64,000 nucleotides of DNA from Bispira polyomma (Eukaryota). Shown here one piece after another: positions 13,377 to 62,204 of this stretch; the stretch's first letter is position 1; every line of letters begins with the position of its first letter. Below the pieces are notes generated by a model. The model ran no database searches. It was given only the letters and a program-made list of their open reading frames with translations, and had not been told where the DNA came from. A program made the translations under genes and the position numbers. The stretch lies in contig OZ287756.1 of assembly GCA_965649765.1 (NCBI GenBank), forward strand, positions 42,284,001-42,348,000, in the 5' to 3' direction.

Positions 13377-13963
13377 ATGAGTGATCATATTTACCCACAG
13401 CATAATTTCAACATTAACAACAGTTCATCACTGATCTTTATTACCGATGTGGATAAAAGTTCTGAAAGTAATGACTGCAATATGCACAAACGATACTCGG
13501 CGCCCCAGCAGCTGGAGATGAATGGAGATGCAATTATGAATATAAGAGAAAATGAAAGTACTTGGAATACAAAAGGAGTGAAACACTTGGTCGCCAAAGA
13601 ACCTCAGGCAGCTAAGAGGATGACTGTGGATACAGATAGAGCAGGGTCGTGTGGTGCCACAGCTGTGGAAACTTCAGGTGTTGTAGCACCTCTTCTGACT
13701 GAAGCTGATGAATTGGTTCTAAAAGAATATGACAGTGATGATAGTGATACAGATAACAGAAGGGTATTATATGACCAAACTGAACCGATTAGGGTTGATC
13801 AAGAAAAAGAAAGAAGTGTGAATGAGGACCATGTGGAAGTTGGTGGAAAACATTTATCTCGAACAGTGGACCAGGTTGAAAGTGATGTTGATGATAAAAA
13901 GGTACAGCGCTTTCTTGAAGTGGATGTACTAAGCCTCAACCACCACAGAGTTAATAATGACAC
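13377..13963 (+). CDS. Host gene isoform A, first coding exon (acidic, probably disordered; product unknown)
   Basis: ACTATG start in a 210-codon ORF with in-frame stops upstream. Donor AC|GTATGT (phase 2) joins in frame to 14468. Confidence 0.7.
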
Positions 13964-14467
13964 GTATGTTGAGTTTCTCATATATTTAAAATTGCTTTAG
14001 TAAGAAACTGTCAGTATTTAAGGAATTACAGCATTTCCTGTATAGTCCCCCCAAATGTCTGGTTACATTGGTACATTGTCTTAGTATAAATTACCCAATA
14101 AATATTTTTTAAAACTAACCATAAGTATGGAGTCAATCACACATGTATGTAAACTCCTCACCAACGGCCTAAATTTAATTTATGGACATATAAATTAAAA
14201 AGAATTTTTTTTTCTTTCAATTCTCTGCCCAGTTTTATTCACCTTTTTATCAATGTTAAAGAGACATACTCGTAGCAAGGGCTGCTGTGGCCTAGAGGTA
14301 AGAAGCGTCTGCTTTAATATCTACCTCTGGCTATAGTTGGGTGATGCCAGCTTCTTTATTCATGTGGTTGATTTTTTTAAGGCAGGCCGGCGGCATACAT
14401 TTTAAATAGTAGTAAAAATCTGGCCGTTACAATGTGACCCAAAAATTGGACTATGTAATCCTTACAG

Positions 14468-14646
14468 GAGCAGTGACAGTGAGTGTGAACTGACCAGAAA
14501 TCACTTGGATGAATCAGGTAGTATGTACACTGTGTTTGTGGAGGGCAATACCTACATACTAAGGACACCTAGCGGCAAGAAGAAAACTTTGAGGTTAGAC
14601 CCTGAGCACAGTCAGCCAGTGAAAAGACGACAGCCAAAAAGGAATG
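14468..14646 (+). CDS. Host gene isoform A, exon 2 (SSDSECELTRNHLDESGSMYTVFVEGNTYILRTPSGKKKTLRLDPEHSQPVKRRQPKRN)
   Basis: Acceptor CCTTACAG|, open frame consistent with phase 2 in and phase 1 out, donor TG|GTATGT. Confidence 0.75.
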
Positions 14647-15319: not shown

Positions 15320-15334
15320 CGGATGACCAATCAA
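15320..15334 (+). CDS. Candidate 15-nt symmetric microexon (ADDQS)
   Basis: TTTACAG|CGGATGACCAATCAA|GTGAGT, with branch-like TACTGAT upstream. Phase 1-1, so it preserves the frame between 14646 and 18025. Confidence 0.55.
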
Positions 15335-18024: not shown

Positions 18025-18122
18025 GTCGTGGGATGTCAGCCCTGCAGAGAGTCTCCGGACAGAGCCAGGAGCACCTCAAAGTGTGGCATCCTGAGGATGA
18101 ACCTGGATCTTTCTTTGCTAAG
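18025..18122 (+). CDS. Host gene isoform A, last isoform-specific exon (RGMSALQRVSGQSQEHLKVWHPEDEPGSFFAK)
   Basis: Acceptor TTTTTTAG|, phase 1 in, donor AAG|GTCAGT phase 0. GC-richer than its flanks. Confidence 0.75.
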
Positions 18123-18230
18123 GTCAGTGATGGCTATATCTTAATTAATGCTATCATCCCTCTATACCTGTACAGTATGTTACGTTGTAGGGCATTGATC
18201 TCTATTTTATAGGTCAATAAATACGGTATG

Positions 18231-18403
18231 TATGGTCTTCAAGGTAGTGTTTATTTCGTAGCAGCCATCTATCAATAAATACACAATGTATGGTTTTCAA
18301 GATAGTGTTTATTTCATAGCAGCCATCTATTAATAAATACACAATGTATGGTCTTAAAATAGTGTTTATTTCATAGCAGCCATCTATCAATAAATACACA
18401 ATG
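18231..18403 (+). repeat. 58-bp tandem repeat, 3 copies
   Basis: Unit TATGGTCTTCAAGGTAGTGTTTATTTCGTAGCAGCCATCTATCAATAAATACACAATG. Confidence 0.95.
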
Positions 18404-19595
18404 TATCTATCTATAATATTATTTACCTTGAAAACCTTTGTTGTATATATACATATATTAAATACGACTAGAATTTTATGTTGTAGTGTATAAAACTGTA
18501 ATTAAAATGTGTGGATAATATTGTTAACCTGCTTTTGTTTCAATATTAGGTAAAGACGCATTCTAAAACATACAACTTCTTCCTTTCTTATTTCTCAATG
18601 TTTTTCCTACACTGATATGATTGCTATTATTGCAGTTTAATTATGTTTAATGAAAGTTTTGGTATAACTATAAAGGAGTTTTCAGAACGTTTACTTGTTG
18701 GAATTCTACCAACACAAATAGTGCTGCATGGGTCCTTTATGAATGTGGTCTTGCACTTATGTTCGCATTATATTTTTAAGAGTGCATTATGACTTAAAAA
18801 TTAACAGCCTAGTTTTCTGCAGAATACTAAGATTAGAATGTCTGAAGTGACACACACTAGAAATTAGAGTGTGCTGTTTTGTCAATAGTATATGTATAAA
18901 ACAACGACAGCTCTATTTAACATGTATGTATCACCATTTTAATAGGATATGAAATATTAAATTTAGTGATACTTTATATTGTAATATTGGTAGAACTGGA
19001 GTGGAAGATTATTATAGAAAAAAATCGACACCGAGGCTTTAAAACTCTTCAATGGGACATCACTAATGATAAAAGGTTCTCTTTGATTTGTAAAATTTTA
19101 TGTCATATAAATGCACATGAAACGAGGGTTAGTTAATTTCATAGGTCCTGTTTTATGACTAAAGTTGTTTTATGGCCTCATCTAAAAGTAATATTTGGTA
19201 TTTTGCATAGTTTGTACTTTTGAAATATAATCAAATAATTATCTGGCCATTTGTGATAAATAGAAAATTAATTTTCAAAGGGCTGGCAAATTGTTGTATT
19301 TTTGTATTAAAACTTAATTAGCCAAAATATTTTAAATTTATTCCTGGTGGCAAACCCAATTGATACAAAATGTTAGAGAAATACTTTCATGTTTTTCCTG
19401 TTATGAAATCGTTCAGTAATGATTACTCTGGTAAGATAGTAAAAAATGCTAAGTTTATGCAGTTATTTTGGCCAATATTGGCAGAACACATCATTAACCC
19501 ACTCTAGTATATTTGTGAGGAAGTGTTATTGAATATTAAGGTGGGCTTATGCCATAGCTGTTCAGTTAAGATCTCGTGTACATTAAACTTGACAA

Positions 19596-20336
19596 TAGTA
19601 CAGCCAGCTATATGTCTAGTACAGCCAGCTATATGTCTAGTATAGTCAGCTAAATATCTAGTACAGCCAGCTATATGTCTAGTACAGCCAGCTATATGTC
19701 TAGTACAGCCAGCTATATATCTAGTACAGCCAGCTAGGGGCCGCGGTGGCCCAGTGGTTAGCAAGCATTGCGCTTCACAATCACTGGTCTCTCACCTCTG
19801 GGCGGCGTGAGTTCCTTACTGTGGGCCGCTGGTTTCTCTGCAGAACCTTGACCGACTGTATGCAGTGTTTCCTCCAGCGTTTCCAACTACCCGTCCCAAT
19901 ATAACCTACTAAAAGATACTAGAGTGGACGTTAAATATCCAAATTCAAATTCAAGTACAGCCAGCTATATGTGTAGTACAGCCAGCTATATGTCTAGTAC
20001 AGCCAGCTATATATCTAGTACAGCCAGCTTTATATCTAGTGCAGTCAGCTATATATCTAGTGGAGCCAGTTATATGTCTAGTACAGCCAGCTATATATCT
20101 AGTGCAGTCAGCTATATGTCTAGTACAGCCAGCTATATATCTAGTGGAGCCAGCTACATGTCTAGTGCAGTCAACTATATGTCTAGTACAGGCAGCTATA
20201 TATCTAGTGGAGCCAGCTATATGTCTAGTACAGCCAGCTATATATCTAGTGGAGCCAGCTATATATCTTGTGGAGCCAGCTATATATCTAGTACAGCCAG
20301 CTATATATCTAGTACAGCCAGCTATATATCTAGTAC
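19596..20336 (+). repeat. 21-bp minisatellite interrupted by a SINE
   Basis: Unit CTAGTACAGCCAGCTATATRT, about 25 copies in total. Confidence 0.97.
19737..19953 (+). mobile_element. SINE family A inserted in the minisatellite, with a 38-bp internal deletion
   Basis: Nearly identical to 16960-17217 except for the deletion. TSD AGTACAGCCAGCTA. Confidence 0.95.
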
Positions 20337-21872
20337 TAATCCAATATCTAATTGACCTTGGAATCAATAGATTTTGCAAGATTCTGTACTTAAGCATCAT
20401 ATCAATAGAGGTGTACCACTCATGGAATCTAGATAAAAGTTTTTGCGCTTTCAGATGTTCTGAAAAAAGTCAATTCCCAACAAGATGAGATAGTGGGGTT
20501 TTTTAAGTTCAAGTGAAATTGTTTTTCATTATTCGAGAAGCCAAAATGCAAGAGGCCTGTGATTTGAAAAATTGAAAAGCATACCTGCTCATGTGTTTTA
20601 AAGTTTTTCGTCCTTAGTTCACCATATAAATGTAAAAAATAAGATGAAGGACTGGGAAAGGATACCATGTTATATCACAAGAGACTGCTGTATTAACTAT
20701 GTTGCAAGTAGAAAGTGAAAAACTAAATTTTGCTTTGGGCAGTCATAAATAAGAGCTTTATATGTCACTTGTGTGTTCAAGCCTTGTATATATATGCACT
20801 GCTCATGTGTAATTTTACCTGGAACAAAATTTTTGAGAGGGTAACTGGAATTAATTATTTATTATTGATTATTTTTTTGTTCTAATATTTACTGGGATTT
20901 AATTTTCAGTCTTCACACCCCTTGACTAAAATAGCTGAAATTAATGCCTAGTGAAAATTGTCGCCAATACAGTAGATGGTATTTGGGATGTATCTGTTCT
21001 AGTGTAAAGTATACGTCTACGTAAGCTACCAGTCTCTGGTGTTTGTCATAACTCCAACTTACCAAATCACAGCTGTTTTCACACACAGGAAGACAACTCT
21101 GTTCATTTAGGTTTTCCTATTACTTGTGGCCAGAGACAGGGAAAGATAAGCCATATTGCCAGGCCTGGGGGGACAGGATAGGGTGTAAGTCCTGGCACAC
21201 AGGGAGTCTATGGACTGTAGTTATAACCAGCAATAGCAGTCCCACAGACCAGTAATTGTGAAGGGGGAGAGGGAGGTATAAGTGGCAGTATCCTCCAAAT
21301 AAAAATACTTCTGTTTTAGTAGTAGATAGTCCATGTACTGACTACTTTAAACAGTTGTTTAGGTGACCTGTTGCAAGTTTTAAGTACAAAACTGGCTAAC
21401 TTACATGTATTTACCTTCAATGTATCTCCTATGTGTGAAAATTGGGTTATAGGTGTGTTGTGAGAGTGTTCTGAGTTTAATGCATATAAGTGGGTATGAG
21501 CATGATACCCCTTGCTGGGCGGCGTGTATTGCAGTATTTTAAGTTTTTTCTTTATTGCCGCAATGGCTATGAAGATGTACGCTTACACAGAATTTCAGAC
21601 GAAATCATTGTAGTTAGCATTTTCTATCAAAGAATCTCTCTGCGACCGGCTAATCGCCATAAGCGCACAGAGATCGTTTCCTAACTCGCTATAGTGGGAG
21701 CCCCACATTAGATCTGACAAACCCAGTTAGAATTGTTGTTTCTCACCACTAAGGACAGTGGTTCAAATCCCACTGGTTCCTTGCTGAGGGAACGTGTGTC
21801 GGCTGTCACAATTATGGCCTAAAATGTTTAAAAGCTATATAAAACTCAAATAATTAAATTTAAGTACAACTA

Positions 21873-22108
21873 CAGGGGTGGACAGTTTAGCGGACAGTGG
21901 ACAGCTTAGCAGACAGTAACTTCAAATGTACACAGTTAATCCATTTAACAAGTAATCTGACCGATTTTAGATGTAAAGTCTGTCTTACTAAATAAATTAG
22001 TGTTATAAGTACTTTGTATTTTACAGATGGCTTTTTAAATGCAACAAATTTTATGTTTTAAGTTACTGTCTGCTATCGCTGTCCCGTCCGCTAAGCTGTC
22101 CACCCCTG
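21873..22108. mobile_element. Tc1/mariner-type (pogo-like) MITE, 236 bp
   Basis: ~50-bp TIRs CAGGGGTGGACAG(T/C)TTAGCGGAC...AGCAGACAGTAACTT, flanked by TA on both sides. Confidence 0.9.
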
Positions 22109-25100
22109 TATTCTCTTCTAAGAGTACAAATGGTATTTTTAGTAGATTAAGTATCTGTCTACTATAGGTACTAGTAAGGAATTGGAATTGTAGTATAAAT
22201 TAAGCTGATTTTAAAGACTGTTCTATTGCCAGACCTTGTATTGTGTCGAACTACTGTCATCTATGGAATTGTGGAGGATGCTTTCTCTTTTATCTGTAAT
22301 CCCTCTTGTTATGCATACCTAAAATATTTATAGTAGTGCTTGCCTGCTTGGGTTATAATTTTGCACAGGCATTAAAATTTGGTACACCCAAAATAAACAT
22401 ACTACTGGGCTAAGTTGTGCGATGTTTTAACTACTTTAGCTTGGCAAAATATGTCACTTTATTTTAGGCCAGCAGTATATATTTCAATTATGTTTTAGTA
22501 ACATCTATCAAACTTTGGTACTAAAGTAAAATACCTTTTGATATATAAAAAGGTATTTTTGTAATTTGTAAGAGTCATGCAATTTATACTGAATAGTATA
22601 GTAGCTGTTAGTATATGTATAGTATATTAAATATATTAACCTTTTGTATATATATGAATGTTTTGTTTATTTTCTTTAACTATTCTTGTATATATGAATT
22701 TTCTTAAATATATATCATAATTTTTATATAAATGGATGTTGCTTGTTTTTAGAATCGTTTTTGCATGCATCTATTTCGTTAAACCAAAAATAACAACAAA
22801 ATATATGCTGTGCTAAATTACTACGGGCACTGATATTGGTCAGATACTGTTTAACAGCATGATTCATGAATGACTAATAATTAGGAAATGACAAGAATTA
22901 TGCAAACAATGAATTGTTACTACTCATGAAAAATACTCTTATTTGTAACATGTATTTATCATTAGTATCATATTGTCGTCAGCTTAAATTAGTCATTGTC
23001 TAGAAAACATTCTCCATTTTACATTGATGGTGTGTGTTTTTTGGTCGGACCTCTAATGTGAGCATTAGCCACCATGTTGTACGACAAGTCCAAGATGATA
23101 GGGGGTGTAGATTTATCGATAATATTTAAGATTTACATATCTTGTTTTAACTTTGTTAATGTAATATTTGCCTTTTATTTGTGGTTACTAATTTGTCTGC
23201 TACACAGATAGAAGTTATTTTACATAAGCAAAATTAAAGAATTATTTGATGTAGAAAAACAATGTTTTAAATTGTAAAAGCTAACACACTTTTGTTACTT
23301 TTGTTATTCTTGTGTCCGGTAATGCATCATAACTGACCTAATTAGAAAGTAGGTCAATAATTTGTTGTCTTGAGCTTCTACAAGGAAATATGAAATCGTC
23401 GTTATCACTAAAACCTGGAATGACACTCAGAAGTGGAATAGACTTACAAAAGCATTTGTATCGCCAAGGACAGGGGATTTGATATGGCCCCGAAAATTTT
23501 AATTTGGTTAAAAGGCTTTATTTCAGTATCAATAGAAAGCTATTATGTACTTTGTGACAGGTTTCACCAATTTTAATTAAAATACAATGGTGATGAAGAT
23601 ATTATCATTTAATCATATCCTCAACTGTTTAAACAGCAAGTTTTTACAGAGAAGATCATTAATTAAATTCTCATTTCCTAGTAAAATATCCATAATAGAT
23701 TTACATAAAGCGGCTTTCACCTTGCTCAGACCTGCCTTTTTAAAAGGCTATTCTAATTTGTCTATACATATCTTCTTACAGACCATTTTATGCTAATGGA
23801 CTATGTGGTTGTTTACACAGAGTAAGGATATGTTTCACATATTACTTCCTTGGTTAGTATACAGTCATAGTGAATGACTAATCTTGAGTATTGTTATATT
23901 TATTTTTTCTTCAGTTATTTCTACATTTTGGGAATGACAAGACATGGTATATTAATATATAAATTCGTAAGTCAATCTAATCTAATTGGACCTATAGGTG
24001 CATTATCTTTGTATGGGGAATTCTAAGACACCAAGCCATAATCTAACGGCAATTCAGTGTCCATATAGCCAATAGGTATATCAGTGCTAGAACCTTTAAA
24101 ATGCCAGGGTTATGAAAATAAGCCTTATATAACAAGTATATATTTTAAGTGTGTACATAATTCAAGAAAGTGAAAGAGCAGACCTGTGACAAATCGTTCC
24201 ACAATGCCACCAATATATCCACAAACCTTGATATATTTGTACTGAAACTGAGTCTGGTAATGTAGCTGTATTTTATGTCACTAGACCTCTAATATGAGAA
24301 CACAAGTTTCTATAATATCTTCATATTAAATTGGCTCCAAGTATTATTACAACTGACAAACAGGGGAAGAGGCAGGATCAGAGAAATATTGGTGTTTTAA
24401 TAAATACAAATCTATATGAGTTAAAATTATGACACAGAACTGAGACCCTATTCACAAAGACTTTAAGAATGCAATTCTTATCATTTTAATAATTTCAGCC
24501 AATTAGATTCATTTAAAAACTATTTTCGGCCAATCAAATTGCTTAAGACAAACATTTAAGAAGGCCAATCTTTTTGAATACCAGCCTTAGATATAATTTT
24601 TAAATTTGGTAATTCGGCGATTACTGCATAATAGATAATCTGAATGTTTTTGTGTATGGTAATTAAAAAATTTATGGAAACGGTCACACCTGTTTGAAAT
24701 GAACTGAATGAGAAGCCTGATGTATAAAGACCATACTGATAATACAAAGTTGACTACGTGCAGAAAACAATGTTTCAGTTCTAGTTTTTAACATTATATA
24801 TTGACATATGTCTCTTTTTAGTCCAATATTTATGACAAGGGAATCAACAGGTTGACAATGTTTAATTTTTGGTAGCTATTTTAGGAATAATGGTGTTTTT
24901 TTTTTGGTATATTTGCTCTTCTTAACTGATAATCAGACACATGATATGAATACCACAATATGTTATGCAGGCCACTACTTCATGTATGTGTTTTCAATGT
25001 GAATTTAAATTTGCATGTACGAATGACATATATATTTACCAACAAATCCCAAAGAACCAATGCACTCCAAAATTGTTCTCTTGAACCACTCAATTTGTCT

Positions 25101-25789
25101 TCGTAAAATATTTTTGTATGGAATTAGTATGGAATCAGTAAAAATATCTTAAATTTTGTTTTTGGAAAAGACTCAAATCATTCCTGTAAAGCCTTTTTGT
25201 TAAATAAACCCAGGCTGCTGCTTCTACAACTTTGGCTTTGTCAATGGACTCAATGAATGAAAATGATTAACATACTTCCCACACTGTGTGGGGAGATACA
25301 TAGCAACAAAGAATAGAATAAAATTAAATTTTGTGGATTTGGCAAATGTGGAGATTATGAGGACATTAAAATGGTTGTTGACCAGACTTGATTAGGGTGT
25401 GCCTAAAACCTTAACATTATAGACAGCATTCTGTCTCCTAACCTCTCTGATCTCTTTTTGAGAGGTTGGACAAGACTTCAATGTCACCGATAGTGATCAG
25501 ATATGTCGGTCGATTTAATTAAATATGTTTCTGTGTGTCACATTTTGAAAAGATATATTCCACAAAAAACACCCAAAAACGTCTAGATATGCCGATTCTT
25601 TCTCTACTCCATGCAAAAAAAAAATTAAGTTTCGCTGACATCTTATCTTGTCTGCTGTACATTCTTGACACATGTTAATGGCTACATTGTTAGCATGGTG
25701 ATGAAAAAATAATCATCCAATGTCGGCGAGCGTTTGCCGATATATATGAAATAAAATAGGACATTTGTTATAGCACACTTATACAACAC

Positions 25790-26096
25790 AGGGCCGTTTC
25801 AAATGTGCTTCCTCGTGGGCAGCCACTATGGGTGTCAAGGCTTACTTAAGAATGACCATTTATCAATGTGCTCAAGGATCTTTAATCTGCCACTGGATAT
25901 ATAACTCAGTGACAGAGGCCTGCCATTTTAAGTAGTCATCCAAGCCACTAGACAAACTTGTGTTCACATCTTGCACTTGTGTTCACGTCTTGCCTAAGAA
26001 TGTTATCACAGTGAAACTAGCGGTCAGTACCGTGAATAGAACCTGGGACCTTCTGATCATCAGATCAACACCCTAACCACTAGACTATGGGGGATC
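25790..26096 (-). mobile_element. SINE family B, near full length
   Basis: Reverse complement starts GATCCCCCATAGTCTAGTGGTTAGGG (same head as 32715), then GGTTCTATTC, TTAGGCAAGACGTGAACACAAGT (locally duplicated) and GGATGACTACTTAAATGGCAGGCCTCTGTCACTG. Confidence 0.8.
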
Positions 26097-29000
26097 ACTT
26101 TATATATCTGACCAAAGTGTTTAGCTTACTGCCAAGTTTTAAGCTGAAGAAGAACAGGTATTTTTATTTGGCACCATAAAGACTCGTAAGGTTTCTATAA
26201 AATGGAATTTAAACTCAACACTGCCGGATGCTATGTCTTTGTTTTACAACGCTGCAAATGCAAAGCTTATGACAAAACTTGTGTCACATATGGCACAATA
26301 ATTGAAAAGACAAAAGTCTATGAACACAGAGTGTAATTATCACAGGACTCATTATTGGTAACACATACTTACATCTAAATTTGAGGCCACAAAACGGAAG
26401 TAGTGTAGACTGTAAGAATCAAAACCATCATATTCTACTGTGTACCACGTTCTCTGTGTTTACACAACAATATCCTTAAATTAGTATGAATTTAGTCTTT
26501 TTAGTGGCTTTGTGGTGGCTTTTGCATCAATATAGTCTCTTTACTCATGTGTGATAAGTTACTAATAGGGTACTTTTGGCCATTGTATCACTGATTGGAT
26601 TTTGCTTTCTCCCATAGAAAGGTCCTAGTAGTTAAAGGATAATTAAGTAGCATAATCTTGCCTGCATACACATTCCCATTCAACCTACAAATCCCATTAT
26701 AAGGTAGTCTCCAGAGTGGACATTCAACCTACAAATCCTATTTTTAGGTATTCTCCGAGAGTGAACGTTAATTATCCCAATTCAAAAAAAGTAAAATATA
26801 AGGTATCCTCCCTACTGCCTTCCTACTGTCAATATCTGATCAGAGTGTTACAGATTGTCATTTGGCATAGAAATATTGAGTACATTGTAAGACATTAATT
26901 TGTGTCAACCTTATGTTTCTGTAGAGGCCCATTGTAGAGGACCGTTGTTGGCGAATATATGTTAGGAATAAGGTATAGAATAAGGTTAAGAACAATCTCA
27001 CCCAAATGCCCAGTCCTAGAAATACCGTAAATGTTTGACAACACAATTTCTTATGCAGTAACGTCATCGATACATTTCTGAACCAAAGTCCAACTGAAAT
27101 TCTGTTGTCTTTCACTGGGTTCATCTGCATAAATTTTATACCTAGTTATAATATATGAATAGATATCTTCATAAAGAACAAGTTTAAGAATGGCTCGAGT
27201 GTCCCTGAAAGATAATCAACAGACTTCTATGATTACAGATACCGTAGTTTTCTGTATAGCCGCACTAGGCATTTAGATGAATTGCATTGTGAAGTTCGAA
27301 ACACCCGAAATTTATCGGTCCTATTGTGCAATAAAGTTAGGGATTAGACCCAATGACTGACCATTTTAGTCTTATCTAAGCCAATATATCTGTAACATAT
27401 CTATATATGTAGCTGGAATCGAACCCAGGCCCTCTTGCATTACACCCAGGTCACATTATTTCGTTAAAGTATTTAACATGGAGGTTTCTTTAAGGTGGGT
27501 GTGTATTAAAAGATTGATCACTTGTTGGCGTGGACATGAACAATATTAGGGAAATGGCATATGCTGAAGTAAATATACCAAGGATGAGTATGTTTATCTA
27601 AGCTGATAACTTAATTGATAATTATCTCTTAATGGGACAGCCTTTGAGGTGACACTCACTTGTTATTCTAGTGCGCTGTTCATTACTCCAGGAGGAACCA
27701 CATTGATATGTGTGCAATGTATAAATCTGGCTAACTATAAGGTTGAGTTCTATCAGAGAGGTGACATGTTATTTCAGTCATGGTAATTTATAGATTTTGA
27801 ATGCATAACATAGATGCATTCTGGAAAATTATTTATATATTATAAAGTGTTGTTAAGACTTAGGTGTGGACATTGAGTGAGCTGCAATAAATCATGTTTT
27901 TTCAATCATGGTAATGGTGTAACATTTTGAATGAATAACATAGCTGCATTGTGGATAATTACTTGGATATTAGAAATTGTGTGAAGACCTATGTATGGAC
28001 ACTGAGTGAGTTGTTATAAATAAAAATTAAAGTTCTCTCTTAGAAGCTAATATATTGTTGAAGTTATTGTAATTTGTACATTTTGACTAGGTAATACAGC
28101 CACCTTCTGGATAATTAATGGGATCGTAGAAACTAATGTTAAGAGGTATGTGTGGAAGTTAGATACTTCAAAGTTTAAATACGTTTCAAAACATAGCCCA
28201 GTAGTAGATTATTTAAGATAGTCATATCCAGTTTATGGGGTAATAATTTCCTTTAGTTACAAAACATAACTTGTGCTACTGAAAAAAAAGCTATTGCACA
28301 ACGGTTGGTCTGCACTACAGGCTAGTTGGATGTGCTTAATGAAAGTATTTACTGTGATCTATTGCTCATTTGTGTATCTCTAAACTAATTGAAGCTATTT
28401 ATAAGAGGTTCTGTTGGGTTGAGGTCTGTTACCAGAGAAATGGGACAGAATGGACTGAACTAACCACGTGGATTGGGAATTCTAAAACCCACAGGAGATT
28501 TGTGTGTTTTTCGGCGTTGCCCTTGATTGCTAATAAACCAATCGGGTTCATAACTGATGGAATATCAATAGATGATTTTTTTTGGTGTGTGTGTACCAAG
28601 AAACGCCCTTCAGAATTCTATGCTTATACTTGGGCAATCGTTTAGTATGTATGTTTTTAGTGTGTTTGGAATTACAGTTAACCACAAATTATCCTGGGTG
28701 TAAAAAAAATTTAATGTTCATAGTGTTCTGTTTAAATTTAAAAATGCTTTCTGTCAGAAGGTGTTTCATTCAATTTCAGGATATTATTTACAAATGTAGA
28801 CAAAGGTAATTGAAATGGCACCATGTATTTTAATATCTGAACAGTTTATGATGCAAGTAGACAATTGAGTTTAAAGCCTTTTGACAAAACATTTTAATCA
28901 AATTTTAATAATAATGTAATTTTACAGCTTTTGTCACTTGTGGATACCCTCAAATCCCAACATTGGGATGTTTTTTTCCACTACTACTAACTGGATAGAG

Positions 29001-29708: not shown

Positions 29709-29719
29709 GTGAGTAGTAT

Positions 29720-46554: not shown

Positions 46555-46593
46555 CCTAGAGTTTACAGTATTATCCACGGTGCCTGGAGGCAA

Positions 46594-46644
46594 ATGAGGC
46601 GAGAAGTTCCGATTCCTGGTGGTGATAAGCTCATGTCGCACATT
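46594..46644 (+). CDS. Candidate alternative first coding exon C (MRREVPIPGGDKLMSHI)
   Basis: CAAATG start, 17 open codons, ATT|GTGAGT donor phase 0, 40 bp downstream of the CRE pair. Confidence 0.6.
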
Positions 46645-48882: not shown

Positions 48883-49681
48883 TGCCCCAGTCACGCAGAT
48901 CATTCTATCTTTTACCGAGCTGCGGGAGACCTCCAGCAACCCAAAAAAAGCTGCGACTACCAATGATTTGCTTTTATTCTTTTTGGGGTGGGATGTCTTG
49001 GGTTTTTTTTCGATCAGTCAGTGGCTGATTGTGAGATTGCTTGGCCACCTTTGTGCAGAGTAAAACCGAGTTGGCAAGATGATTGAGGTCGATCACACGA
49101 CTGTCCTCCAACTGCAAATGTCGACCACTGTAGGATCTTCCTGGTGAAACCAGCAAAGACTGTTCTATTCAAGGGGTATAAATACAGCCTTTAGGTCCTG
49201 ATCTCGGCAGTTTTATAACAATTTGCAGATTGTACGACCAGCAAATACTGGTCTGCGACCTATCACAAAGAGGTCTTTCATGGACGGAGAGTTGTTGCTG
49301 ATTGGTTACTAGAAGTCACTTGGTACTTCCAACAGGTCCATTGTGATCAGTGACTTGTCATTTGATCAGATGCAGACCACTACTACATGGTCTGGAAGTC
49401 TCAGATGAGCGTTAGTTTCTTAGGAGTAGCTGCAAACACTGAAACCTGTCGCACTACAATGACACCCTCAGAGGATGGGTTAAACACTTTTGAAGACCAC
49501 TTTGATCGCCATCAGTTTTTTTATATAAACCAAAAACCTGCTCCTGACTGAAGTGATTGTACAACCAGTGAACAACGATTACCAGTTGCACAAACTATGA
49601 CAACCTCAAAAAGAAAATCACCAGCGACAAGTAGTCCGCAAGAGGTCTCTCAGAAGTTGGAAGGTCGGTCTGACTGGTGTA
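48883..49681. mobile_element. Probable non-autonomous PIF/Harbinger-like DNA transposon (~800 bp)
   Basis: Imperfect TIRs TGCCCCAGTCA / TGACTGGTGTA, flanked by TTA and TAA. GC-richer interior with repeated CGAC/GTCG motifs and no transposase ORF. Confidence 0.55.
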
Positions 49682-52600
49682 TAATGAGAAATAATATTAT
49701 GCCAAAATTGGCTTTAGTGTCATTGAAAAAGGTAGAATATATCTAATTGCCTTGGAACTTGGTCCTCTGTTGTGTGTACATATTTAAAATAGTCTGCCAT
49801 CACTTTATTCTCAAGGTCATTTTACAACTGGCTTCTGGACCCTGATTCTGTGGTCAAAATTACTTTTTGATGTTTACTTTAGAGTACTGTACCACAGTTG
49901 TGGACATATATACTGTTGTGGGCTTGCTAAGGTTTGGTTTGTGTATGGAACAGAAATATTGCCAAAGTATACTCTGTATTGGTTTGCTGTTCCAGTAAAC
50001 TGTCCGTCCTGGCAGGAAGCACAGGTGTTAAAAACAACGTTTAAACACAAACTCCTGCTGCAATCTTGTGATAACAAAGCGCTAATGCTGCTGATTGATG
50101 GCCATCGGTTCAACCATATGAAATTCATGGGGACTCAAGAAGTGTTATTCTACCATTATTTTCAAGTCTAAATTCTCACTTAAATATGTTGGTATATAGA
50201 CCATTTCCCTCGGTAAGAATGCTTTACCTTGGCTTTGCTTCTGTAGTCAAAATACCGAGTATACGGTGTGCTGGTGGCCTTTACTGCCATCCCCGCAGCT
50301 TAAACATTGATTTGGACAGCTATACTCTTCGTCTTCGAACTGATGTGTCAAAAATGGAAGTGATCTATGTGAGTAATGTGCCACATGACCAATGTGGTAA
50401 GAAAAGACATTAGCCCCCTGGTGTGCAGTGGGAGATATGGCTATGGGAGTTTCAGATGGTCCTTGGGTGATTTAACAGAAGAAATTATTATTCTTATGAA
50501 AAATAGATTTTTTGTTTTATTGAAGAACTGGAAAATGATGGGCCTCTGTGTGGATGAAATATTATAGTGAAGTGGAAATAAATCCGTGCCAGTTTATACT
50601 TATCAATGATCCCTAGTTTCAATAACGTGCTACACTATGGTTGCATTAGTATATATATGTCATGGTGGATAATCCAAGTGGAGTCTCTGCGACAGAAAGT
50701 CCAATTATGAATATTAGAAGATTAATTTAAAATTACTGAATATACACCACTCAAAACATGAAACTAAAAACTTAAGTTTGTGAAGGTAAAAAGAGAAATT
50801 GTAGTAACGGAAAGAATAATAAATTATGAATGCAGATATCAAGGTACTGTGTGTGAAGAGTAATTACAATTTGTACTCCCACTTTTAGAAACAGTGTTGT
50901 CTGTGGATTCCTATTCCAAGATGTGAAGATGTACTAAGTAGCCTGGGTAACTGCACAAAATGCAATTAATCTGATAAAGGAAAATTGTAAAGACCTAAAT
51001 GGCTTTATAATGGGTATCACTGGGATGTGTCCAACCACGAGTAATTTCACAGTTTTAGGAGTTAGTTGACAATCATACTAGAAAAAAAAAACAGAATAAA
51101 CGCTACAGGGAATCTAATTGCACTTCACACTGGGTCAATATGCCAGAATAATTACTACATTAGATAGTTAAAGTCGTAAACAATGGTAAACAGTTTTAAA
51201 AAAATAAACTTAATTTCAACACGGAATATTTTTTTTTGGTCCAAACTTGTCCTTTTATTGTGTTTTTCTAATGAAAAGTTTCTACCAATCTACTGCCAGC
51301 ATAAACTTGAATTGGACTTTTTACCATGCATCCATCTGCAGTTATCTGGTATACAAAGAGCATCAGTTAACTTACATTCTCCTAACTGAAGAGAGTGAGG
51401 CTTACGAAACATTAATTAAGAGCATTCTTGACATTTGACTATGCTACAAATACATGACATTGGTTTTTTTCTAACAAGTAAATGACCCATGGTTGTATTG
51501 TAACATGCTCCTATTATTGCATTTGTCATAATGATCTGTTTATTATTATTAAGTTATAAATGTGGCTATAAACCTAAGATTAGTTGACCAGTCGAGTTAA
51601 TTATGAAAAGGGTTCTTACATTTTTATTGTAATATTAGATTAGGGATACCTAATTTGTTCAAGTTGAATTCTGTCTATTTTAATAATCCCCCCACCCACA
51701 GTTCCTCGGTGTGTGGTCAGATAAGATCAATTTAACCAACAAGACCTTTAAAGGCAATAGAGAAGAATGTGGTTAAATATTTTATTATATAATAGCTAAG
51801 ACTAGCAATGTTTATATACAGTTCAAATAATAAGGTAAAATTTTAGGGCATAAGGTCACCTTAACTGAAGTAAGTTTATGAGTTTAAGTTTGAACTTAAA
51901 CTCTAATTTCTATTTTGAAGTTTCAAATCTAGAGTTTAAGTTCAAACTTAAAAGCATTATTAGTTTAAGGTTGACAATTTGAGGTTTGACCTGTAATGTT
52001 AAATTAAGGATACTTAATTTGCTCAATGTGAAACTTGAATTCTGTCCATTTTAATAATTCTCCCACCCACACACATCTATACCACACCAGCCTTGACACT
52101 TAGCATCCAGCCATACACATAGCGACACAAAGGAAGGTTAATCGTCTGGTTGATTCCTTGTTTTGAGAGGGAGGTGGGAAGTGTGAGAAAATCCTTGGCT
52201 AAGAAATTGCCAATTTCTGAGAGTAACCTAATTTACGTGATTTGGATAATATTCTGGAAAAATTAGGAAGAAATATTGCCAGCTGACCATGTGGTGGGTA
52301 TAGGGTTGAGTACCCAGGGGGGATTTAGGGGTGGTGGCTTGTGTATAATTGTGACCATGTGTTTGTTGTGGATATCCCAGACGTCAGCACATTTACAGAA
52401 GAGTGGAAACTGTCATCTGAATGATGCAACGTCTTGACTTGTACTAGAGGATTTGCACTGTATTGTCTTTGAAATGATTGTGGTTTGGTAGATCATTAGG
52501 GCCAATTACAGCCAGCCTTCTTCTTCTTATCAAATAAGTAGGACACATTTAAGATATTTAAACTATGAAATAGGTAGGAATGTTTGGGTATTTCATGGAT

Positions 52601-55600
52601 AAAGAGCTTATTATTGATAAATTGGCACAAAACAACTAATCTGGGGGTCTTTAAAACTGCCATCAAAACTGAAATCTTACAGGGTTGAACCACAAATACC
52701 TGTATATGCCTTACTACACACACATGGTGTTAGTTATGTAAAACATACAGGTTTCGCACATGGACATGCTGTTTAATCTTGTTTGTCTGGTTATACCCTA
52801 TCGTCATCAAGTAGTAATTCATCAATATAGTAGATACAATCGTTGACTTCTAGTGGTGAAATAATATGATAACTTGAAAAAAACAAGTTCATACAAGTTA
52901 GTGACATGAAGGGCTGGGACACAACATTAAAAATAGCTCAAAACATTCAGTAAGGAATATATATTGCAACTCTACACTACTATTCTGGTTTACATTAATT
53001 TGTAATTAGGACCTCAGAAAGAGATACAAATTCGGCAATTACATTTTACCTAACCGTCTATATATATATGGGTTCATTAGTATTGGGTTTTTTTTACCGG
53101 ATGGGCAGTGGTGGCCAAACATTGTCTCGAAACCAGAGGAAGTTCATATTTGGCACACATTTTTCTTGCGAAGTGTAGATGTGTAACGTCATGGTCTGAT
53201 TTGGCCTGAAGGGTGTGGGGTTTTGCTATATCCAATGCAATTTTTATATTTGCCAATGGAACACTTGAAATGCTATAACAATGAATTGCATATTGCTGCA
53301 GTGACATAAACAAGTAACCATGCCTTCGGGGGTTTCATTAACACACTATTAACCCTCTTTCCTTTGTGGCCATTGATGTCATATTGTACCTCTCAACTGG
53401 TGATTGTTACCATGGTTTTTACAGTGACTAAATGACCACTGAGGAAATTAATTAAATAAATAACAAATGGCAAAAAAATGTTAATTTTTTGCTGTTTTGC
53501 AAGTTCAATACATGCTGGTACATTCAGTAGTACCACAACAGGCTCACAACAATATCATTTAGAAATAATTTTAAGCAGATGCATACAATTTATTGACAGT
53601 GAGTCGTTTACACACAAAAAACAGATAATTAATTTTGTCTTTGCCATTGCTGCAATTAGGCGTGAGGATATATTGACCAAATATATGGGACCTGAGACTT
53701 TTTGGGAGACAGATGCACTGTTATTTTATGGGTCAGTAGCATTTCCTGTCTCCCAACTAGTTTGTGGTATGTAAGCCCCCCACCCCCCCATAAAGTATAG
53801 ATTGATAATCAGAAACCAGCAATTAAAGGCATAGCTCATAAATACTCTCCTTATTTTACACTGTATTTCATCTTACAACGAAATACAACAGTTATTGCAA
53901 CAAATTGAATAAAACACTAAAACCCTTTTACAGCACCTACAATACATAATGTGTCATTAAATAGGTGTCGTTAATAAAGTCATTTCAACAGTTCTAATTC
54001 GGGGCAGCGTCTTGTGCAAAGTCAGACAATTATTTAGTTTAGTATTTACATATTGCATGTGTTATTGTTGTCACTTGATCAGAAGCTACATTTAAAAAAA
54101 AAAAAACACAGTACAAAATAGAAAACAAATTTGTTTCAGTAACACAAATATGAACAGCATTTCTTTGTAATTCACTTCCGAAACTGTAACATGATAATTT
54201 GTATCAGTGCCATGTAATTATAAGGCTGCCTGAAACCAACAATAAACACGTCAAACAAAAAAGACACTGCTAATGAGAGCCCCAATAGCACCCCCCCCCC
54301 AACCGCCCCCCCCCCCACCAATACCCACCCACACCCCTCTTTCATCATCTCCAGCCTTCACAGGACAGCCAGCCATATTGTAATGAGTGATATTAAGTCT
54401 ACACTTAACATGTTTCTAACAGTGTATGTAGCATATTAAACACAGTCTAGTGGTGACTTGATTTTAACATTAACTTAAAGATGGTGTGTGTTTAAGCCAT
54501 ACTACATCCACAAAATATTGTACTCACTATGCCATAATAGGAATATAGAATAGAAGGGTTTAAGTACAGTTAGTGGTAATGTCTGACGAAGGCCTCAAAC
54601 TGTAGAAGCCAGTATGGGGAGGGAATACATCAGCCCCCCCCCTCCGAGTGGCCTTATGTAACCAGCAAGGGGCTTACTCTCTATTGACACAACTCTCCAA
54701 CGGAAAATTGTCAGGTCTTTTTGTAGAACACCAGACAGTTGGAATAAGACACTGTTATCTATTGGAATGCTGTCCAAAGATCTAATTTGATTGGACACAT
54801 AAAATATAGATAATCTAAAGACCAGGAGTAGTCGTAGATGATAATGTAAGATTTATGGGATAAAAAGGTATGTATTGTCAAAGTTTTGTCTGATATGGCA
54901 GTTCTCCCTTCGGTGCAGCAGTTTAAGTTACAACTTAATCCCCAAGGATGTGATTTGTAAGCACTTTTGGAGCTGAAGTGTTGGAATGGATGCCTCTATA
55001 CTGTTTGACTTTATCCATGGAAAATACCATTTCATTTGTAACAGTGTTGGCCAAACAGAAAAAAACCTGTGTCCAGACACAAACTAGTGATTGTTCGGCA
55101 AATGTGGACAAATGCAAAATACTTTTCAGGCAAATAAAGTAAGGTTTTTAGCAATATAATAATCTTCTAATTTAGATGAGCAAAAATACTTAAAATTTTT
55201 GTTCGCTCTAATATTTGAACATGGTGTTAGATATTGTAAAAGGAGTAAAACTGGGGTATATCGTTTTGGTGCTTTTAGATGCTCCCAGGGAAATATATTC
55301 ATAGCAATTTGTAGACAATTAACTATATATTAGGTTGAAGTCTATATATATATACAAGGCAGACCTATCAATCTTGTGGAGAATACATCCTAGTAGTTGC
55401 TGTACAGATTTATGTTTGAGGAGTCTCTCTTATTCACTAGGAGGATTTAGGGAGGAGATCAATTCGCAGATAAATGGACAGAAATTACATTCAGTATAAA
55501 ATGGAGAGACACTCATTACTTGTAAAAATATAGGCCTTTTAATCAAGTGCAACAAGGATAGGTTAGCATGACCTATAAGAACTACACAGTTTACATAGTC

Positions 55601-56578
55601 CATGTATATAGTTGTGACCAGGGAGGTAGTATTTTTGAAACTTGAATTTTTTGGTGAAATCAATGCACATCAAATAATATAATAACAGATTTGTAAGGTA
55701 ATTTGTATCCTTACAATAAGTCGATATCATTATACATGCTGTAGACCACAGTAGTCGAAAATTGTAAAAGATGGTCGTTTTTGAAAAATATAACAATATA
55801 TGATGTAACAGTAAAGCACTTGATATCAGTTATAGAATGGAAACTTTGATAATTGAAGGTCGACAAGAGGGAGTATGCATATGTTCAATTCTGTGGATGA
55901 GTTTGTAATGAAAAGTTTGTAATATTAGTTAGAATACATGAAATTAAATAAATATTGAGTTTTTAAAGGGGGTTATACAAGGAGTCTAATGATTTACTTT
56001 TAAAGCTTGCCTGGGAACAAAATCAACATTATTGTCGGAGATAATGTAAGAATCAGTTTGCTTTATCTCTGGATTTTTCTGGTGGGATGTGCCTCTTACT
56101 GATAACAGTTATCTATACCGGCTGAGCAAATGCACTTTAATTATACAGTATATTTTTTGTAGTTAATCTGAGCTACATTTACTGCACCAAATAGACAAAA
56201 ATACAAGCAAAGCAAAAGCCATTGATAGAGAGATAGACATGATAGATTGAGTTGATATTTGGGACTCGCTAAAGGTTGGATTAGTTTGTTTGTTATAAAT
56301 CAACAACCCAAACAACAAAAACAACAAAAACAGCTGCAACGGAAGGCAGTGGGCAGTAAACTAAGAGGAATGTGGAATCAACAAGATTTGACCAGTGGTC
56401 AGTTTGCACTCCAGAGGGAAATGTGTAGTCTGATAAATAGGCTTCAGCTCAGGTCAAATGTGGACTGAAGTGGGATAATCTTCCTCTGTTATAATACACT
56501 ACTGTGTTGTGGTAGTCAATGCTTAGATTTGTTGTTTGCATTTCAAGTTTGGCTAATAAAAATCTCTGTACAATATAA

Positions 56579-56584
56579 ATGTTG
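56579..56584 (+). CDS. Candidate minimal alternative first coding exon D (Met-Leu)
   Basis: TATAAATGTTG|GTAAGT: A-rich context, consensus donor, phase 0. Preceded by UTR-like GA- and CAA-rich sequence from ~56220. Confidence 0.35.
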
Positions 56585-59500
56585 GTAAGTGCACAGTTTG
56601 TCATTTACACAGGGACTAGGAGAAAGCCATGTAGTTTAATGTGAGTTATTTTGTTTATTTGCTTATTGGACAGCGCATTTTTTTATATAATTTTCAAATC
56701 AATATATTTCGTATATACAATCCAATTTAAGTTATGGACAATAATTAAATTTAATTTATTAAATAATATAATATTGTGTATATTAAACAAGTAATTTGTA
56801 GTCATTAACCATAGCTTCGGTTATTGCTAGCCATTTGTTGTATGTTAATGAGATACATCCAAATATAATCACAAAAATATAGAACATCTTGGTACAGGTA
56901 CATTCCATTGAAATAAGCATGTTGACGACTTTCCAACATATGTGATGATGTTATTACATTAATCAATATCAACTCGGAGTATGCATATCTTATTTGAATG
57001 GGTCAGCCCTTCCTTTATAAAGTGACCATCAGACACCATTAAAGGATTAAGCTATTCTGGATATGTGTTGTCTAATTGTCTGTATTCCACAGATAATATC
57101 CATTTTACAAAGACTTAGAGTAAAGATTTTTGCTCCCTCCATTTCAATAACCATAATATTTCCTTATTCGTTACTGTTAAATACAGTTGTTTAATAAATT
57201 CAATCACTGAACGTAAATTTGGGTGTGGGTTACAAACTGGTTAAACACATCTGGCTGGGAATTTATGGTGGAAATATTTTTAGAATGCAAGTAATGAATA
57301 TCTTTTCCCCCAGACCCGATAGTTCATGATAGACGTACCCTGTAAAGTTCCACTTTGTGTATGACTAAATAGATATAAGATCCAGAAATAAAAGAAGTAA
57401 ACTGATATTTATAAATACAATTTACCGATATATATATATATCTTACTTCCAGCCTAACTAGTTTAAGATTGCCATAAAGCCTGTTTATATATTGAGTAAA
57501 TATACCCACCATGTACATCATGGAACCCCTCATTAGCCGTTGTTACCACTGTAATTAAATCTTATGCTCACTGGCTGTAAACACCAATTTAGTCACGAGT
57601 ACTTACCATTTTATGGTCCATACAAACAAACTCTTATACCATAAACACTTCAACATTTGACCATAAAATTTACACTTCCCTTGCAATAAACAAGCACAGA
57701 ATGCATTAAATTCTTACTTTTACTGCTGTCAAAAAAAACGAAAACAGTCTGATTTATATTATCTAAAGGACAGCTTGTCAAATGTCTTGATTAAATAGGG
57801 AAGGTCAAATGTGAAGTAGGATAATCTAAACCACAATTGTAGCTCTAACATAGCAAAAGGTGCTTATTAAGGGTTACACGGTATTAATTCCTATACATAA
57901 ATCTGTCTTTGAGCATCCCATATTGTGATCTACTCAGGGAATAGGTTTTAGGATGAATGGCCAAACACAACATAGGACATATAGTATCCATGCCTTGTCT
58001 GAGACGCTATTTACATATGTGATCACTGAGGTCTTTGGACAGAAATCTGATACCTGTGAAGCCTTATTGTGTTAATGGAGATTTTTATTCCTTTGAGGCA
58101 GTAAGAGGAGGGGTGGGGGGTGAGTGGGGAGTTTTAATACCTTTTTTTATTAAGTGTTTTCACCTTACAGAGTGATGTGGTTTTTGCCCATCCCAGGAGA
58201 AGCACATAACCAATGTTCATCCCAGTGAATGTGTATGCCTCTCTTCTGATATCCTCAATTGATAAGGCAAAATGACAAAAATTAGTTCTGTTTAATCATT
58301 GATTGACATCAAAATTTGATCATTAATGCCATATATATTTCTTAGTGTATTTGGATGAATTGATACATCTCCTCAGTATATGGAATCTGGACATTCATTG
58401 TTCATGGTAGAGGTTACCAAAAAGGATCTTTTGATAAATGGAATATACCAAAGCTATCAACCAGATGTGAAGTTTTCTATTTAGATAATTCAAAATTTGT
58501 TTTAAACATAAATAAACATAAGTTTCTGTAAACACCGATATGGATTGATATTGTGAAACATAAATGAAACTTAAAATATATCCTATAAAAAAGGGCTTCA
58601 CTACTTATTTACACACTGGAAGGAATGTGGTAAATGGAGAGAGCTGTGACTTTTATTGATGGAACCATCCATTGCCTTCAGTAATACAGTACATAGAGGA
58701 GGGAAAAAAACAGCCTCACATAGGTGACAGCACACTGCCTATTTCTGCTTGAAATGATGAGGATGGTTTCTTCTTTTTTGTCCTGTATAAATATATGAGA
58801 TGCATACTGGATAACTCAGTGGTATTTTTGGCAAATATTTTTTTTATTATCCTTATATTTCCATTCTGCTTATGTCACCTTCTGTATAAAGAAAAAAGTA
58901 TTGCAGGAATAAATGGGATAGTTATATATATTATATATTTATATAGACAGGAGCTTTATTGAATTTTGATGATAGAGTTCCAGAAGACATTAAGAACATT
59001 GCCCTAGTCATATGCAAATTTGTAATACCAAGTGGGGTTGTTTTTTGTCACTAGCTTATGTGTGGGAGGTTCTTCCTATCCCATGAAGTTCTGTGAAAAA
59101 TAATTATACTAGCTGATTGGGACCAGTGAGAGAAATCCTGTCTCATAAAAGTGAAAAAGCAGCTTTGATGATTAGCTGATTTATTGACTTAGCCACCCTT
59201 CTTCCACGATGGTTGCTCAAAATACAATAAAAATGCTTTTTTAAAAAAAATCTACAAGATGATAAAATGTGTTTTTCCAAGTGCAAAAGAAGGCTCTGTA
59301 GAACTAGCTGATCAGCTAAATCTCTACTGGTGGCATTTTACATGCCGAGTTCTTATGGCTGGTAGATAAGTGGATGACTGCAACAGATGGAAATGGGATA
59401 AGGCTAGAAGTTATTAGATATAACATCCCACATTATTTTTTTAAAAACTCGAAAGTAGTGGAGATAGAGACTCAGACCAAGATTACTATGTTTGTAGGAT

Positions 59501-59957
59501 TTGTGTTAAGTTAAAATAAATATAACACAATAGACAAAAGGAATATATTTAAGGAACCAGGTACAGAAACCAGTTCAAGTTGATACTTCTTAGTGATTGT
59601 GTGTGTCAATAGAATTAAAGATTCCTTGTGTAAAACAGCACACATACTGGATAAAGAAATGTATCAATAAAACTTGTATGAGTAAGTAAAATCTGTAAAA
59701 AATCTGTAAAATATTTTTAGTTTTGTAGGAAATTGGAGAATTGCCACAATTAATGTGCAAATGGATAATTGTTGAACAATGCACCTCAAAATGGGATACT
59801 CTATTAAAAAAATACTGTTCAGAGTTTGATATGTAGACTTTTCTACCGATAAGTACTATGTCAAATATCTCCATTTACACATAAAAGAATAAATTAAGCT
59901 TCCAAATGTACTTTGGGAAAAATCTTACCCGATGCATCGCTTTAATATCGTGAAATT

Positions 59958-62204
59958 ATGGAGGGGACAAGTTCGATTGAAATGATAAATGAGAATAAAA
60001 ATGGGTCAACAAGTACCTTTACTAAGTCCACTGTAAAAACTGGTAATAACAAAGGACATTTGGAGACATGTTTTCCCAGTGGAGGAGGTGTGTTTTTTAA
60101 AGGGGACAATGTGAACTTGTTCACTGAAGAGACAAATCCTTTAGATTTAATGAGAGGCAAAAAAGGGAGCATCGGCTGTAGCTGCAGCATCGAAGATGAG
60201 GATGACACCAAAAACAAAGCAGTCGTTAATTCCGCATTGGGCCAGGGTGATAATTTGTGTTATGGCAGCGAGCTTTATGGCCAAGAAATCTCCAAGGAAG
60301 GCTGTATGGATTCTATTCCGTCAGAAAGTAATAGCAATGCGATTAGGGAAACTGGTGAAGCTTTGAGAGAATCGAGCATCTTAATCAATGTGGATGGTAC
60401 AACGGCTGCTACTGCTTCTGATGCTATTGAACCCGATCATTCGGCACAGAAATGCAAAGCCAGTCAATCAGCCCAGCTGGGAAAAAACCCCTGTGAGAGT
60501 TTGGCACTGCCCCCTTGTGTGACAAACCTGCACCTGTCACTCCCAAGCCTTCGCCCAACTCCTGACGAGAGGTCCACTCTGAGTCTCTCCAGCAGTGCAG
60601 CAATAAACAAAAACAGTGCAGCCTCGTTAGCTTCTAATGTGGGGTTAATTGGCAATGATCCAGCTGAGTCCAGAATAGAAACTTCCCGAAGCCTTTCTTG
60701 TATTAGAAACAGTCACACTCCTGCTAGGCTTACGGTTCCTGTTGAAGAAACCAGCCAGTCTTGTTCTCGAAAGAGGAAGAGGATTGGCTTGCTCAAAAAA
60801 CAAGCCGCACTCTGTGACAGCCTTGTTGATGTGTCTCTACCATCAGGTATCAGTAATTCATTATCAGACCCCCCAGATATGGGGTGTCCACCCAACAATC
60901 TCTCCCCTAGTCTGTCCTATAATAATAAACCTAATCAGGTCATACAGGGCTCTTCCTGTACTCACACCCATCTATGTAGCCCTGAGAACACATATGCTCA
61001 AGCTTTCAGACCACTATCTGGGGGCAGTACTGGTAACATATCCAGTGAGCAAGTGACATTCTTCGTGGACACACAGCAGCATGCAGAGCCACCACCGTAT
61101 TACTTAGAAACCAGGCAAATAAGTAAGAGTAACTCCCATGAGAGGTTTGGAACTACTAAAAGACCTTATAAGAAAATTAGTTTTGTTAATAGAAATTATT
61201 GCTCACCTTACTTGACAGACCCCCGTGAACCTTTACTGAGTAGACATCAGAATGAGACAAAAATTGGGCTTGGAAAAATTCAGCCCAAATCACTACCTTC
61301 AGTTATAGAACAGATAAGCAGTCCTCACTCTCAGCGTCGTGGGCAACGGGGTAGTTTATTTACTGGAGTAACAAGGTCGGTAAGGGAATTCCTACTCCCT
61401 AAAGCAACACACAGCTTCCCATCATTGACACTAACACAAAGTGCCTGTGACATCTCTAAGAGAAATCTGCTATTGAAGTTCTCAAAATCACAGAACAACA
61501 CGAATATGAGGCCACCTCTCCAGAGATTTAACACATCAATAGGCAAGGGGTCTACAGATAGCATCACTTCGGTCCCACCATTGTTATTACTGGATCAGGA
61601 TGAACAAGAGCACCTGAAAGCTGGAAAAACACTAGGCGGCAATAACCTGCAAAATTTTAGTTTCAACGACACTCCGTTGTTGGTGTTTGAGAAATGCGAC
61701 CACAATGAGAGATTTACCAAATCGGCCAGTGGGAATATTTCCAACATGTCTCAAACATCGGATCCAAGTCTTCAGCAGCAGAAGTCTTCGTCTGAACATC
61801 TGCCCACCTCCTCCGGCTTCCATCCCCATCAGCAGCAGCTCCACCTAGCAGATAACCTGATCTCGCCCGATCACTTGGGTCCATCTAGCACCCGTCGACA
61901 CCTGCATGGTGCTAACCAAAAGGGTTCATTCATTGGATTACATAAGATGTCCAATAGTGCCTCAACCTCCTCATCTTCCTCCAAGAAGAATACCTTTAAC
62001 AGGAATGTCTCAGATAATGGATTACCCTCCTCCCACCTCACCTCAAGGAAGTCTTCCCTCAAGATACCGCTCCATCGGGACTCCTCACTACCCCAGGGGC
62101 TATTACTGCACCATCGACCCTCCCTAATCTTCAGGACTTCCTTCTCTAGAAGGGCCAGCATCACCCCATCATTGAGGAGGCTACAGCTCAGATTTGCTAA
62201 AGAG
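59958..62204 (+). CDS. Large alternative first coding exon E (749 aa, Ser/Pro-rich, probably disordered, ends RRASITPSLRRLQLRFAKE)
   Basis: 780-codon ORF, ATTATGG start with in-frame TAA at 59943, donor GAG|GTGAGT phase 0 at 62204/62205. No recognisable folded domain. Confidence 0.85.

Follow-up and report, generated by a model that had tools for sequence, protein, structure and literature searches.

The stretch of DNA investigated in this study, a window of 64,000 nucleotides from the genome of the annelid Bispira polyomma (G000:C9:42284001-42348000), raises the question to which gene a series of ATG-started units belongs, each of which ends at a GT donor located between two codons. An earlier note had proposed that these units, termed A to E, would share a common phase-0 acceptor to the right of the window. 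In the adjacent 200 kb, which were examined as well, we found such an acceptor at G000:C9:42415790 (L008:7790), a pyrimidine-rich AG located 67.8 kb beyond the window at position 131790 of the continued coordinates, in which the numbering of the window is carried on rightward past 64000. The exon following this site reads GRDFES and opens a core of 17 exons, all with GT-AG borders, which encompasses 848 open codons and ends at G000:C9:42504706. The earliest methionine of this core resides inside the first membrane helix, and the core thus needs an upstream coding exon that ends in phase 0. When compared to proteins, a check that had been suggested for the downstream exons, it turned out to be the body of a CLC transporter with 70.7% identity to the Capitella protein P0004. 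The gene is an annelid CLC anion transporter that is related to ClC-6/7 and extends over about 207 kb, with the window covering its 5' half. It is thus neither PDE4 nor AMPK-gamma nor plectin.

The membership in the CLC family is reflected in the Pfam domains detected in single core exons, which comprise Voltage_CLC (PF00654, E 8e-13 and 4e-8) and CBS domains (PF00571, E 2e-5). It is further illustrated by the signature motifs of these proteins, GSGIPE, G(K/R)EGP, GxFxP and a tyrosine on helix R, which are represented in the core by GSGIPE at position 125, the proline variant GPEGP at 167, the variant GIVVP at 518 and the helix-R tyrosine contained in IYHS. Alignment via the orthologue P0014 relates GPEGP and MEEVSS of the core to GKEGP and LEEGAS of ClC-7. 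The selectivity serine and the central tyrosine are retained, and so are the gating and the proton glutamate with their established roles in CLC exchangers, as expected for a 2Cl-/H+ exchanger. Such residue roles are described in a published account (PMC5362633). Since GSGIPE, GPEGP, MEEVSS and the helix-R tyrosine are all present, coupled Cl-/H+ exchange is likely, and the residues of the core suggest that it would work as an endo-lysosomal 2Cl-/H+ exchanger similar to ClC-6 and ClC-7. Among solved structures, these two proteins are also the nearest both in sequence (P0004 scores 341 and 312 bits) and in fold, as judged with the model of the orthologue (target TM 0.84-0.89), with key residues aligning. 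However, they differ by the presence of GKEGP instead of GPEGP and by an identity of about 30% (determined for P0014), which in conjunction with two GKEGP-type CLC matches elsewhere in the same genome argues that the gene is not an orthologue of ClC-6/7. In a quick tree of 40 rows, composed without ClC-6/7, the core shares a group (SH-aLRT 100) with P0004 (Capitella) as well as P0014 and P0076 (Ridgeia), with proteins from Owenia, Lineus and Lingula joining at 99. The proteins of this invertebrate clade carry automatic names of the type 'chloride channel protein C/B/D-like', and besides its grouping with the 'C-like' proteins the gene shares with them the junction FFxK/GRDFE (the slash marks the exon border).

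This junction provides the link between the core and the window. The AG of the shared acceptor directly precedes the same glycine in 28 of 28 related loci (29 were returned, with one partial match left out), and a phenylalanine is found at position -3 or -4 of the junction in 96 of 99 relatives (82 by pattern and 14 more by eye; 120 were examined, of which 99 had a readable junction). The genome of Bispira polyomma, in which CLC matches number at least six, harbours on contig C4 a compact paralogue that belongs to the same clade (G000:C4:66499083-66509800, L069-L070). Its first intron measures about 1.2 kb. The GRDFES exon of this paralogue is preceded, at a distance of 1.25 kb, by an ATG exon whose last residues are FFAK and whose donor is in phase 0. 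A4, the last exon of unit A, is 37% identical to this first exon over 38 amino acids (pairwise E 6e-6). Judged by its sequence, A4 is the homologue of the normal upstream exon of the family and almost certainly a real coding exon of the CLC gene. As a consequence of these matches, an intron of 113,667 nt separates A4 from the core to which it is joined, and units B to E are located within that intron.

Unit A, previously described as about 290 residues over three to four exons, reads as four exons with 293 open codons and phases 2/1/1/0. Its first three exons are likely real, with a confidence that is lowered by their weak splice sites and the lack of codon bias. A1 is acidic, non-repeat and probably disordered, with a donor of 1.8 bits and a codon score of about 0, and neither A1 nor A2 shows the codon bias of the core, a property that is shared by E. 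Moreover, an in-frame alternative ATG at 18012 that belongs to A4 would yield 37 codons, and the chain from A1 to A3 is thus not required. Two acceptors, 25 nt apart, precede A4 between positions 17990 and 18025 of the window. The second alone keeps A1-A3 in frame, whereas the first would place the ATG at 18012 within the exon. The coordinates of all units are listed in Table 1.

Table 1. Features of the locus. Positions refer to the window, except for G and F, which are located on L008 outside of it.
Feature	Position	Strand	Description
A1	13377..13963	+	candidate first coding exon, 195 codons + 2 nt, open frame, phase-2 donor
A2	14468..14646	+	candidate internal exon, keeps frame; acceptor weak (-0.6)
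A3	15320..15334	+	candidate 15-nt microexon, symmetric phase 1-1, donor 5.1 bits
A4	18025..18122	+	ancestral exon directly upstream of CLC core; FFAK end at phase-0 donor
A4-to-core intron, left part	18123..64000	+	whole intron 113,667 nt, up to shared acceptor
B	29493..29708	+	likely alternative first exon, 72 codons, ATG, phase-0 donor GTGAGT (6.7 bits)
C	46546..46644	+	probable alternative first exon, 33 aa (ATG 46546) or 17 aa (ATG 46594), donor GTGAGT
D	56579..56584	+	ATG-TTG-GTAAGT, 2 codons, phase-0 donor
E	59958..62204	+	likely alternative first exon, 749 codons, ATG, phase-0 donor GTGAGT
G	L008:236-776		exon of sixth unit, strong phase-1 donor
F	L008:1493-2079		exon of sixth unit, phase-1 acceptor, phase-0 donor

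The start codons and phase-0 GT donors that had been assigned to B, C, D and E were confirmed, and the frames are open. Several exons of the locus thus carry an ATG and end at donors whose phase matches a single acceptor, which is the arrangement of alternative first exons. We consider it probable that A, B, E, the sixth unit G+F and likely also C are such exons, each of which would splice to the shared acceptor of the CLC core; the core, its acceptor, the phase match and the homology of A4 were observed, and the splicing of B to E is what we infer. The units are not equivalent: B and E are well supported and C moderately so, whereas A4 is ancestral, D lacks support and a sixth unit is found outside the window. 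B, which is very likely a real coding first exon, ranks first among 110 phase-0 candidates on the plus strand by combined donor and codon score. It is basic, has a GC3 of 0.71, contains three [RK][RK]x[ST] sites and has a single genomic match. There is a high probability that E is real as well. Its open frame spans 749 codons (chance expectation 2e-18), its donor (7.95 bits) is the best among the units and its 3' end is single copy, while it ranks 7/110 with a codon score of about 0. E is Ser/Thr-rich and contains neither a domain nor a membrane segment, and no Pfam family was detected in A1, B or E. We place the same high confidence in G+F, which comprises 376 open codons inside the long intron and whose exon F ranks 3/110.

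A general ATG to phase-0 donor pattern is not above chance. At a donor score of at least 3, the numbers of ATG-to-donor stretches by phase in 113 kb are 31/23/27 on the plus and 30/18/27 on the minus strand. In contrast, a donor of at least 6.5 bits combined with at least 60 codons singles out B and E (two in phase 0 on the plus and none on the minus strand). An excess of phase 0 obtained with unscored donors (24 vs 11 and 12) was discounted, since it contains repeat copies and ATG-GT overlaps and disappears once donors are scored.

D (rank 38/110, CpG in the 33-62nd percentile) does no better than chance and is probably noise, and we thus regard it as unlikely to be a real unit. For C, the frame and donor hold, although an upstream in-frame ATG extends the 17 residues originally assigned to it to 33 codons. 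It is conceivable that C, like D, is a chance pairing of an ATG with a donor, which would reduce the real starts to A, B, E and G+F: its donor is weak (1.3 bits), a repeat-derived candidate at rank 8 scores the same as C at rank 9 of 110, and short ATG-donor pairs are equally common on the minus strand. Conversely, C is non-repeat, has a codon score of 7.8 bits, resides in a CpG-rich island (93-98th percentile) and carries two TGACGTCA motifs at 46547 and 46931, a feature that is weak on its own in light of 16 occurrences of the motif in 221 kb. On balance, we lean towards C as a real first exon.

A different assignment would leave A as the only part of the CLC gene, with B, C and E heading separate nested transcripts that splice to undetected small exons or terminate within the intron. 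In the repeat-masked intron, clear coding-like islands on the plus strand are confined to B, E, G and F and, more weakly, C. The minus strand also scores high, which is due to a retroelement and to shadows that these exons cast. Pfam searches with 78 intron ORFs of at least 85 residues yielded retroelement matches and noise below the cutoff, and neither approach found a competing gene between A4 and the core. The coding scan detects about half of the exons, as it recovered 8 of the 17 core exons when these were left out and 5 of the 10 exons of the paralogue. A nested gene with many exons is thus unlikely, whereas a small one with one or two exons could be missed. This sensitivity, the lack of homologues of B, C and E and the 70-102 kb that separate the units from the core would be compatible with nested transcripts. 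We nevertheless find them improbable, as all units end in the sole phase that the core needs, the intron shows no further coding island or Pfam family and the intron following A4 itself spans 113.7 kb.

The distribution of CpG dinucleotides is consistent with a single gene. In repeat-masked sequence, CpG o/e amounts to 0.16-0.39 throughout the intron and the core, while the values are 0.43 upstream and 0.52 downstream, as would suit a single gene body that is methylated. In polychaetes, CpG o/e follows the methylation that gene bodies and promoters carry (PMC10414810). Six of the top eight local CpG peaks coincide with F, G, E (two), B and C, an observation that is supporting only, since coding exons are CpG-rich in themselves. 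Two further peaks, one at 21.4 kb and the other at 115.1 kb, are probable repeat remnants (with a mutual match of 22 nt) and were not considered further. Strand skews across the locus were uninformative, and five AG/GTRAG sites were rejected as recursive splice sites as their acceptor scores are all negative.

A chaining of the units, with C or D as 5'-UTR exons of E or with B, C and E as symmetric cassette exons in A transcripts, appears very improbable. The phase-0 donors shared by all units would permit in-frame inclusion behind a phase-0 acceptor, B and C are preceded at a distance of 100-400 nt by acceptor-like sites (3-5.5 bits), and an Owenia isoform carries an in-frame insert of 12 residues at the same FFxK/core junction. 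However, the best phase-0 acceptors within the open frames score -2.3 in B, -6.2 in C and 0.3 in E, with none in D, while those of the 17 core exons range from -0.2 to 10.6. The upstream sites precede in-frame stops and could thus serve untranslated leader exons only, which would still result in alternative N-termini. The stops upstream of A, B and E had been taken as sufficient to bar these units from being internal exons of one another; a stop alone does not permit this conclusion, and the acceptor test found no good internal phase-0 site in B to E.

If B, C, E and G+F act as alternative first exons, separate promoters within the 113.7-kb intron would initiate their transcription, and the choice of the promoter would select the tail, with each start supplying an ATG and 33-749 residues on an identical core. 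The tails do not contain a membrane segment (the highest 19-residue hydropathy is 1.08) and would thus be cytosolic, where they would most likely set kinase regulation and perhaps location. Among five sequence patterns tried, [RK][RK]x[ST] is enriched in four of the five tails, with shuffle P values of 0.043 for A, 0.004 for B, 0.047 for E and 0.003 for G+F and no site in C. In the background, 4 of 265 ORFs reach P<=0.05 and none reaches 0.005. This excess argues for the units being real proteins and for their control by kinases. In contrast, dileucine and YxxPhi sorting motifs are not enriched in the tails, except for one DxxLL in B, and sorting in the manner of ClC-3 is thus the second choice. 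In the model of P0014, residues 1-90 are disordered, and the ten residues ending in FFAK show an average pLDDT of 78, which suggests that B to F would replace a probably ordered segment. We tentatively entertain the possibility, which we rate below even chances, that at least five exchangers originate from one gene by promoter choice and that exchanging the tails has structural in addition to regulatory effects, altering gating or the control by nucleotides or lipids in each isoform, with unrelated tails of up to 749 residues that carry kinase sites replacing the conserved FFxK segment. If the junctions are real, nature provides here a set of different N-termini attached to a single ClC-6/7-like core, and the isoforms would allow a direct test of the N-terminal role with and without the FFxK segment. 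The arrangement also suggests that orthologue models with a lost or truncated N-terminus, such as P0076, which starts inside the first helix, relate to first exons located up to 114 kb away.

Promoter-linked first exons that end in one phase and join one acceptor are familiar from PDE4/dunce, plectin, UGT1A and the protocadherins. Unlike in UGT1A and the protocadherins, the cassettes described here appear mutually unrelated instead of duplicated, as illustrated by the lack of a second genomic match for B. Alternative first exons are already known in CLC genes, and it is their number and size range (33-749 residues) that would set the present gene apart. The invertebrate channel CLH-3, encoded by clh-3 of C. 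elegans, shares the presence of splice variants and kinase control and belongs to another CLC branch. These features are described for the variants CLH-3a and CLH-3b (PMC2606941, PMC5362633), and deletion of the N-terminal insert of CLH-3a left gating unchanged, with the gating difference traced to C-terminal inserts (PMC5362633). A parallel in design is mammalian CLCN3, where alternative cytoplasmic N-termini are placed on one CLC exchanger core. The N-termini of ClC-3a, b and c determine endosomal versus recycling or plasma-membrane location with identical transport (PMC13562645). CLCN3 belongs to a different CLC branch, and the present gene differs by its four to five tails of 33-749 residues that are distributed over 113 kb and in which sorting motifs are not enriched. 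In ClC-6 and ClC-7, the N-terminus is packed against the CBS domains, and that of ClC-7 contains dileucine motifs for targeting (PMC10303033).

The proteins of the 'chloride channel protein C/B/D-like' clade have the same junction and FFxK exon, but the database models examined show a single N-terminus for each gene, or small indels, and no array of first exons. Nearly all of these models show an FFxK-type N-terminus only, one exception being a Lineus protein with a different end at the junction, and the isoform sets in ten clusters contain no switch of first exons. The short N-terminus of Capitella has an end similar to FFxK and was therefore not taken for an alternative exon. A tblastn of the units gave no significant match in 29 related loci and, in 130 kb around the C4 paralogue, nothing but A4. 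Among 287 fetched proteins, none matched the units except for a weak match of A4. When B was compared to longer proteins of a large database, none of 23 candidates matched, and an Atlas search was blank for B and for residues 560-749 of E. Our literature search, which was short on subscription papers, found no paper on this clade and nothing on its first exons. Weak parallels to the array are the Owenia isoform with its 12 additional residues at the junction and the above-mentioned Lineus protein. In one related locus, an ATG unit of 139 codons and 71% GC (L036:871-1286) ends at a phase-0 donor 2.96 kb before the shared acceptor. It is unrelated in sequence to the units of Bispira and is possibly an analogous first exon. 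Conserved non-coding blocks are located 0.4-2.9 kb upstream of the shared exon in L027, L029, L035, L036 and L044. They carry a CGCCATATTT motif, which is presumably YY1-like, and a second block in L029 and L036 retains a CAG/GTAAG donor. These blocks are possibly promoters or leader exons in the respective species and have no match in the Bispira polyomma locus.

Several further features of the locus were observed. Three TGACGTCA motifs are located at L005:7535-9300 (101.5-103.3 kb in continued coordinates), together with an ATG unit of 6 codons (103294-103311) with a phase-0 donor of 5.4 bits, which is possibly another short start. Between positions 59200 and 63000 of the window, three DNA runs from two samples are unbroken across the donor of E, without variants or joints, and behave as genomic DNA; the contigs may come from the same source as the assembly. 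Retrotransposon copies, which we take to be of the DIRS type, with gag-like, reverse transcriptase/RNase H and tyrosine recombinase regions, reside at positions 359-3528 of the window (minus strand), just left of the window and at L002:2079-6271 (minus strand), the last inside the long intron. Finally, tandem repeats at L008:7930-8470 and at 135.3-135.7 kb and 164.0-164.3 kb in continued coordinates copy exon-intron borders of the CLC core and yield runs of decoy donors or decoy acceptors beside the real exons.
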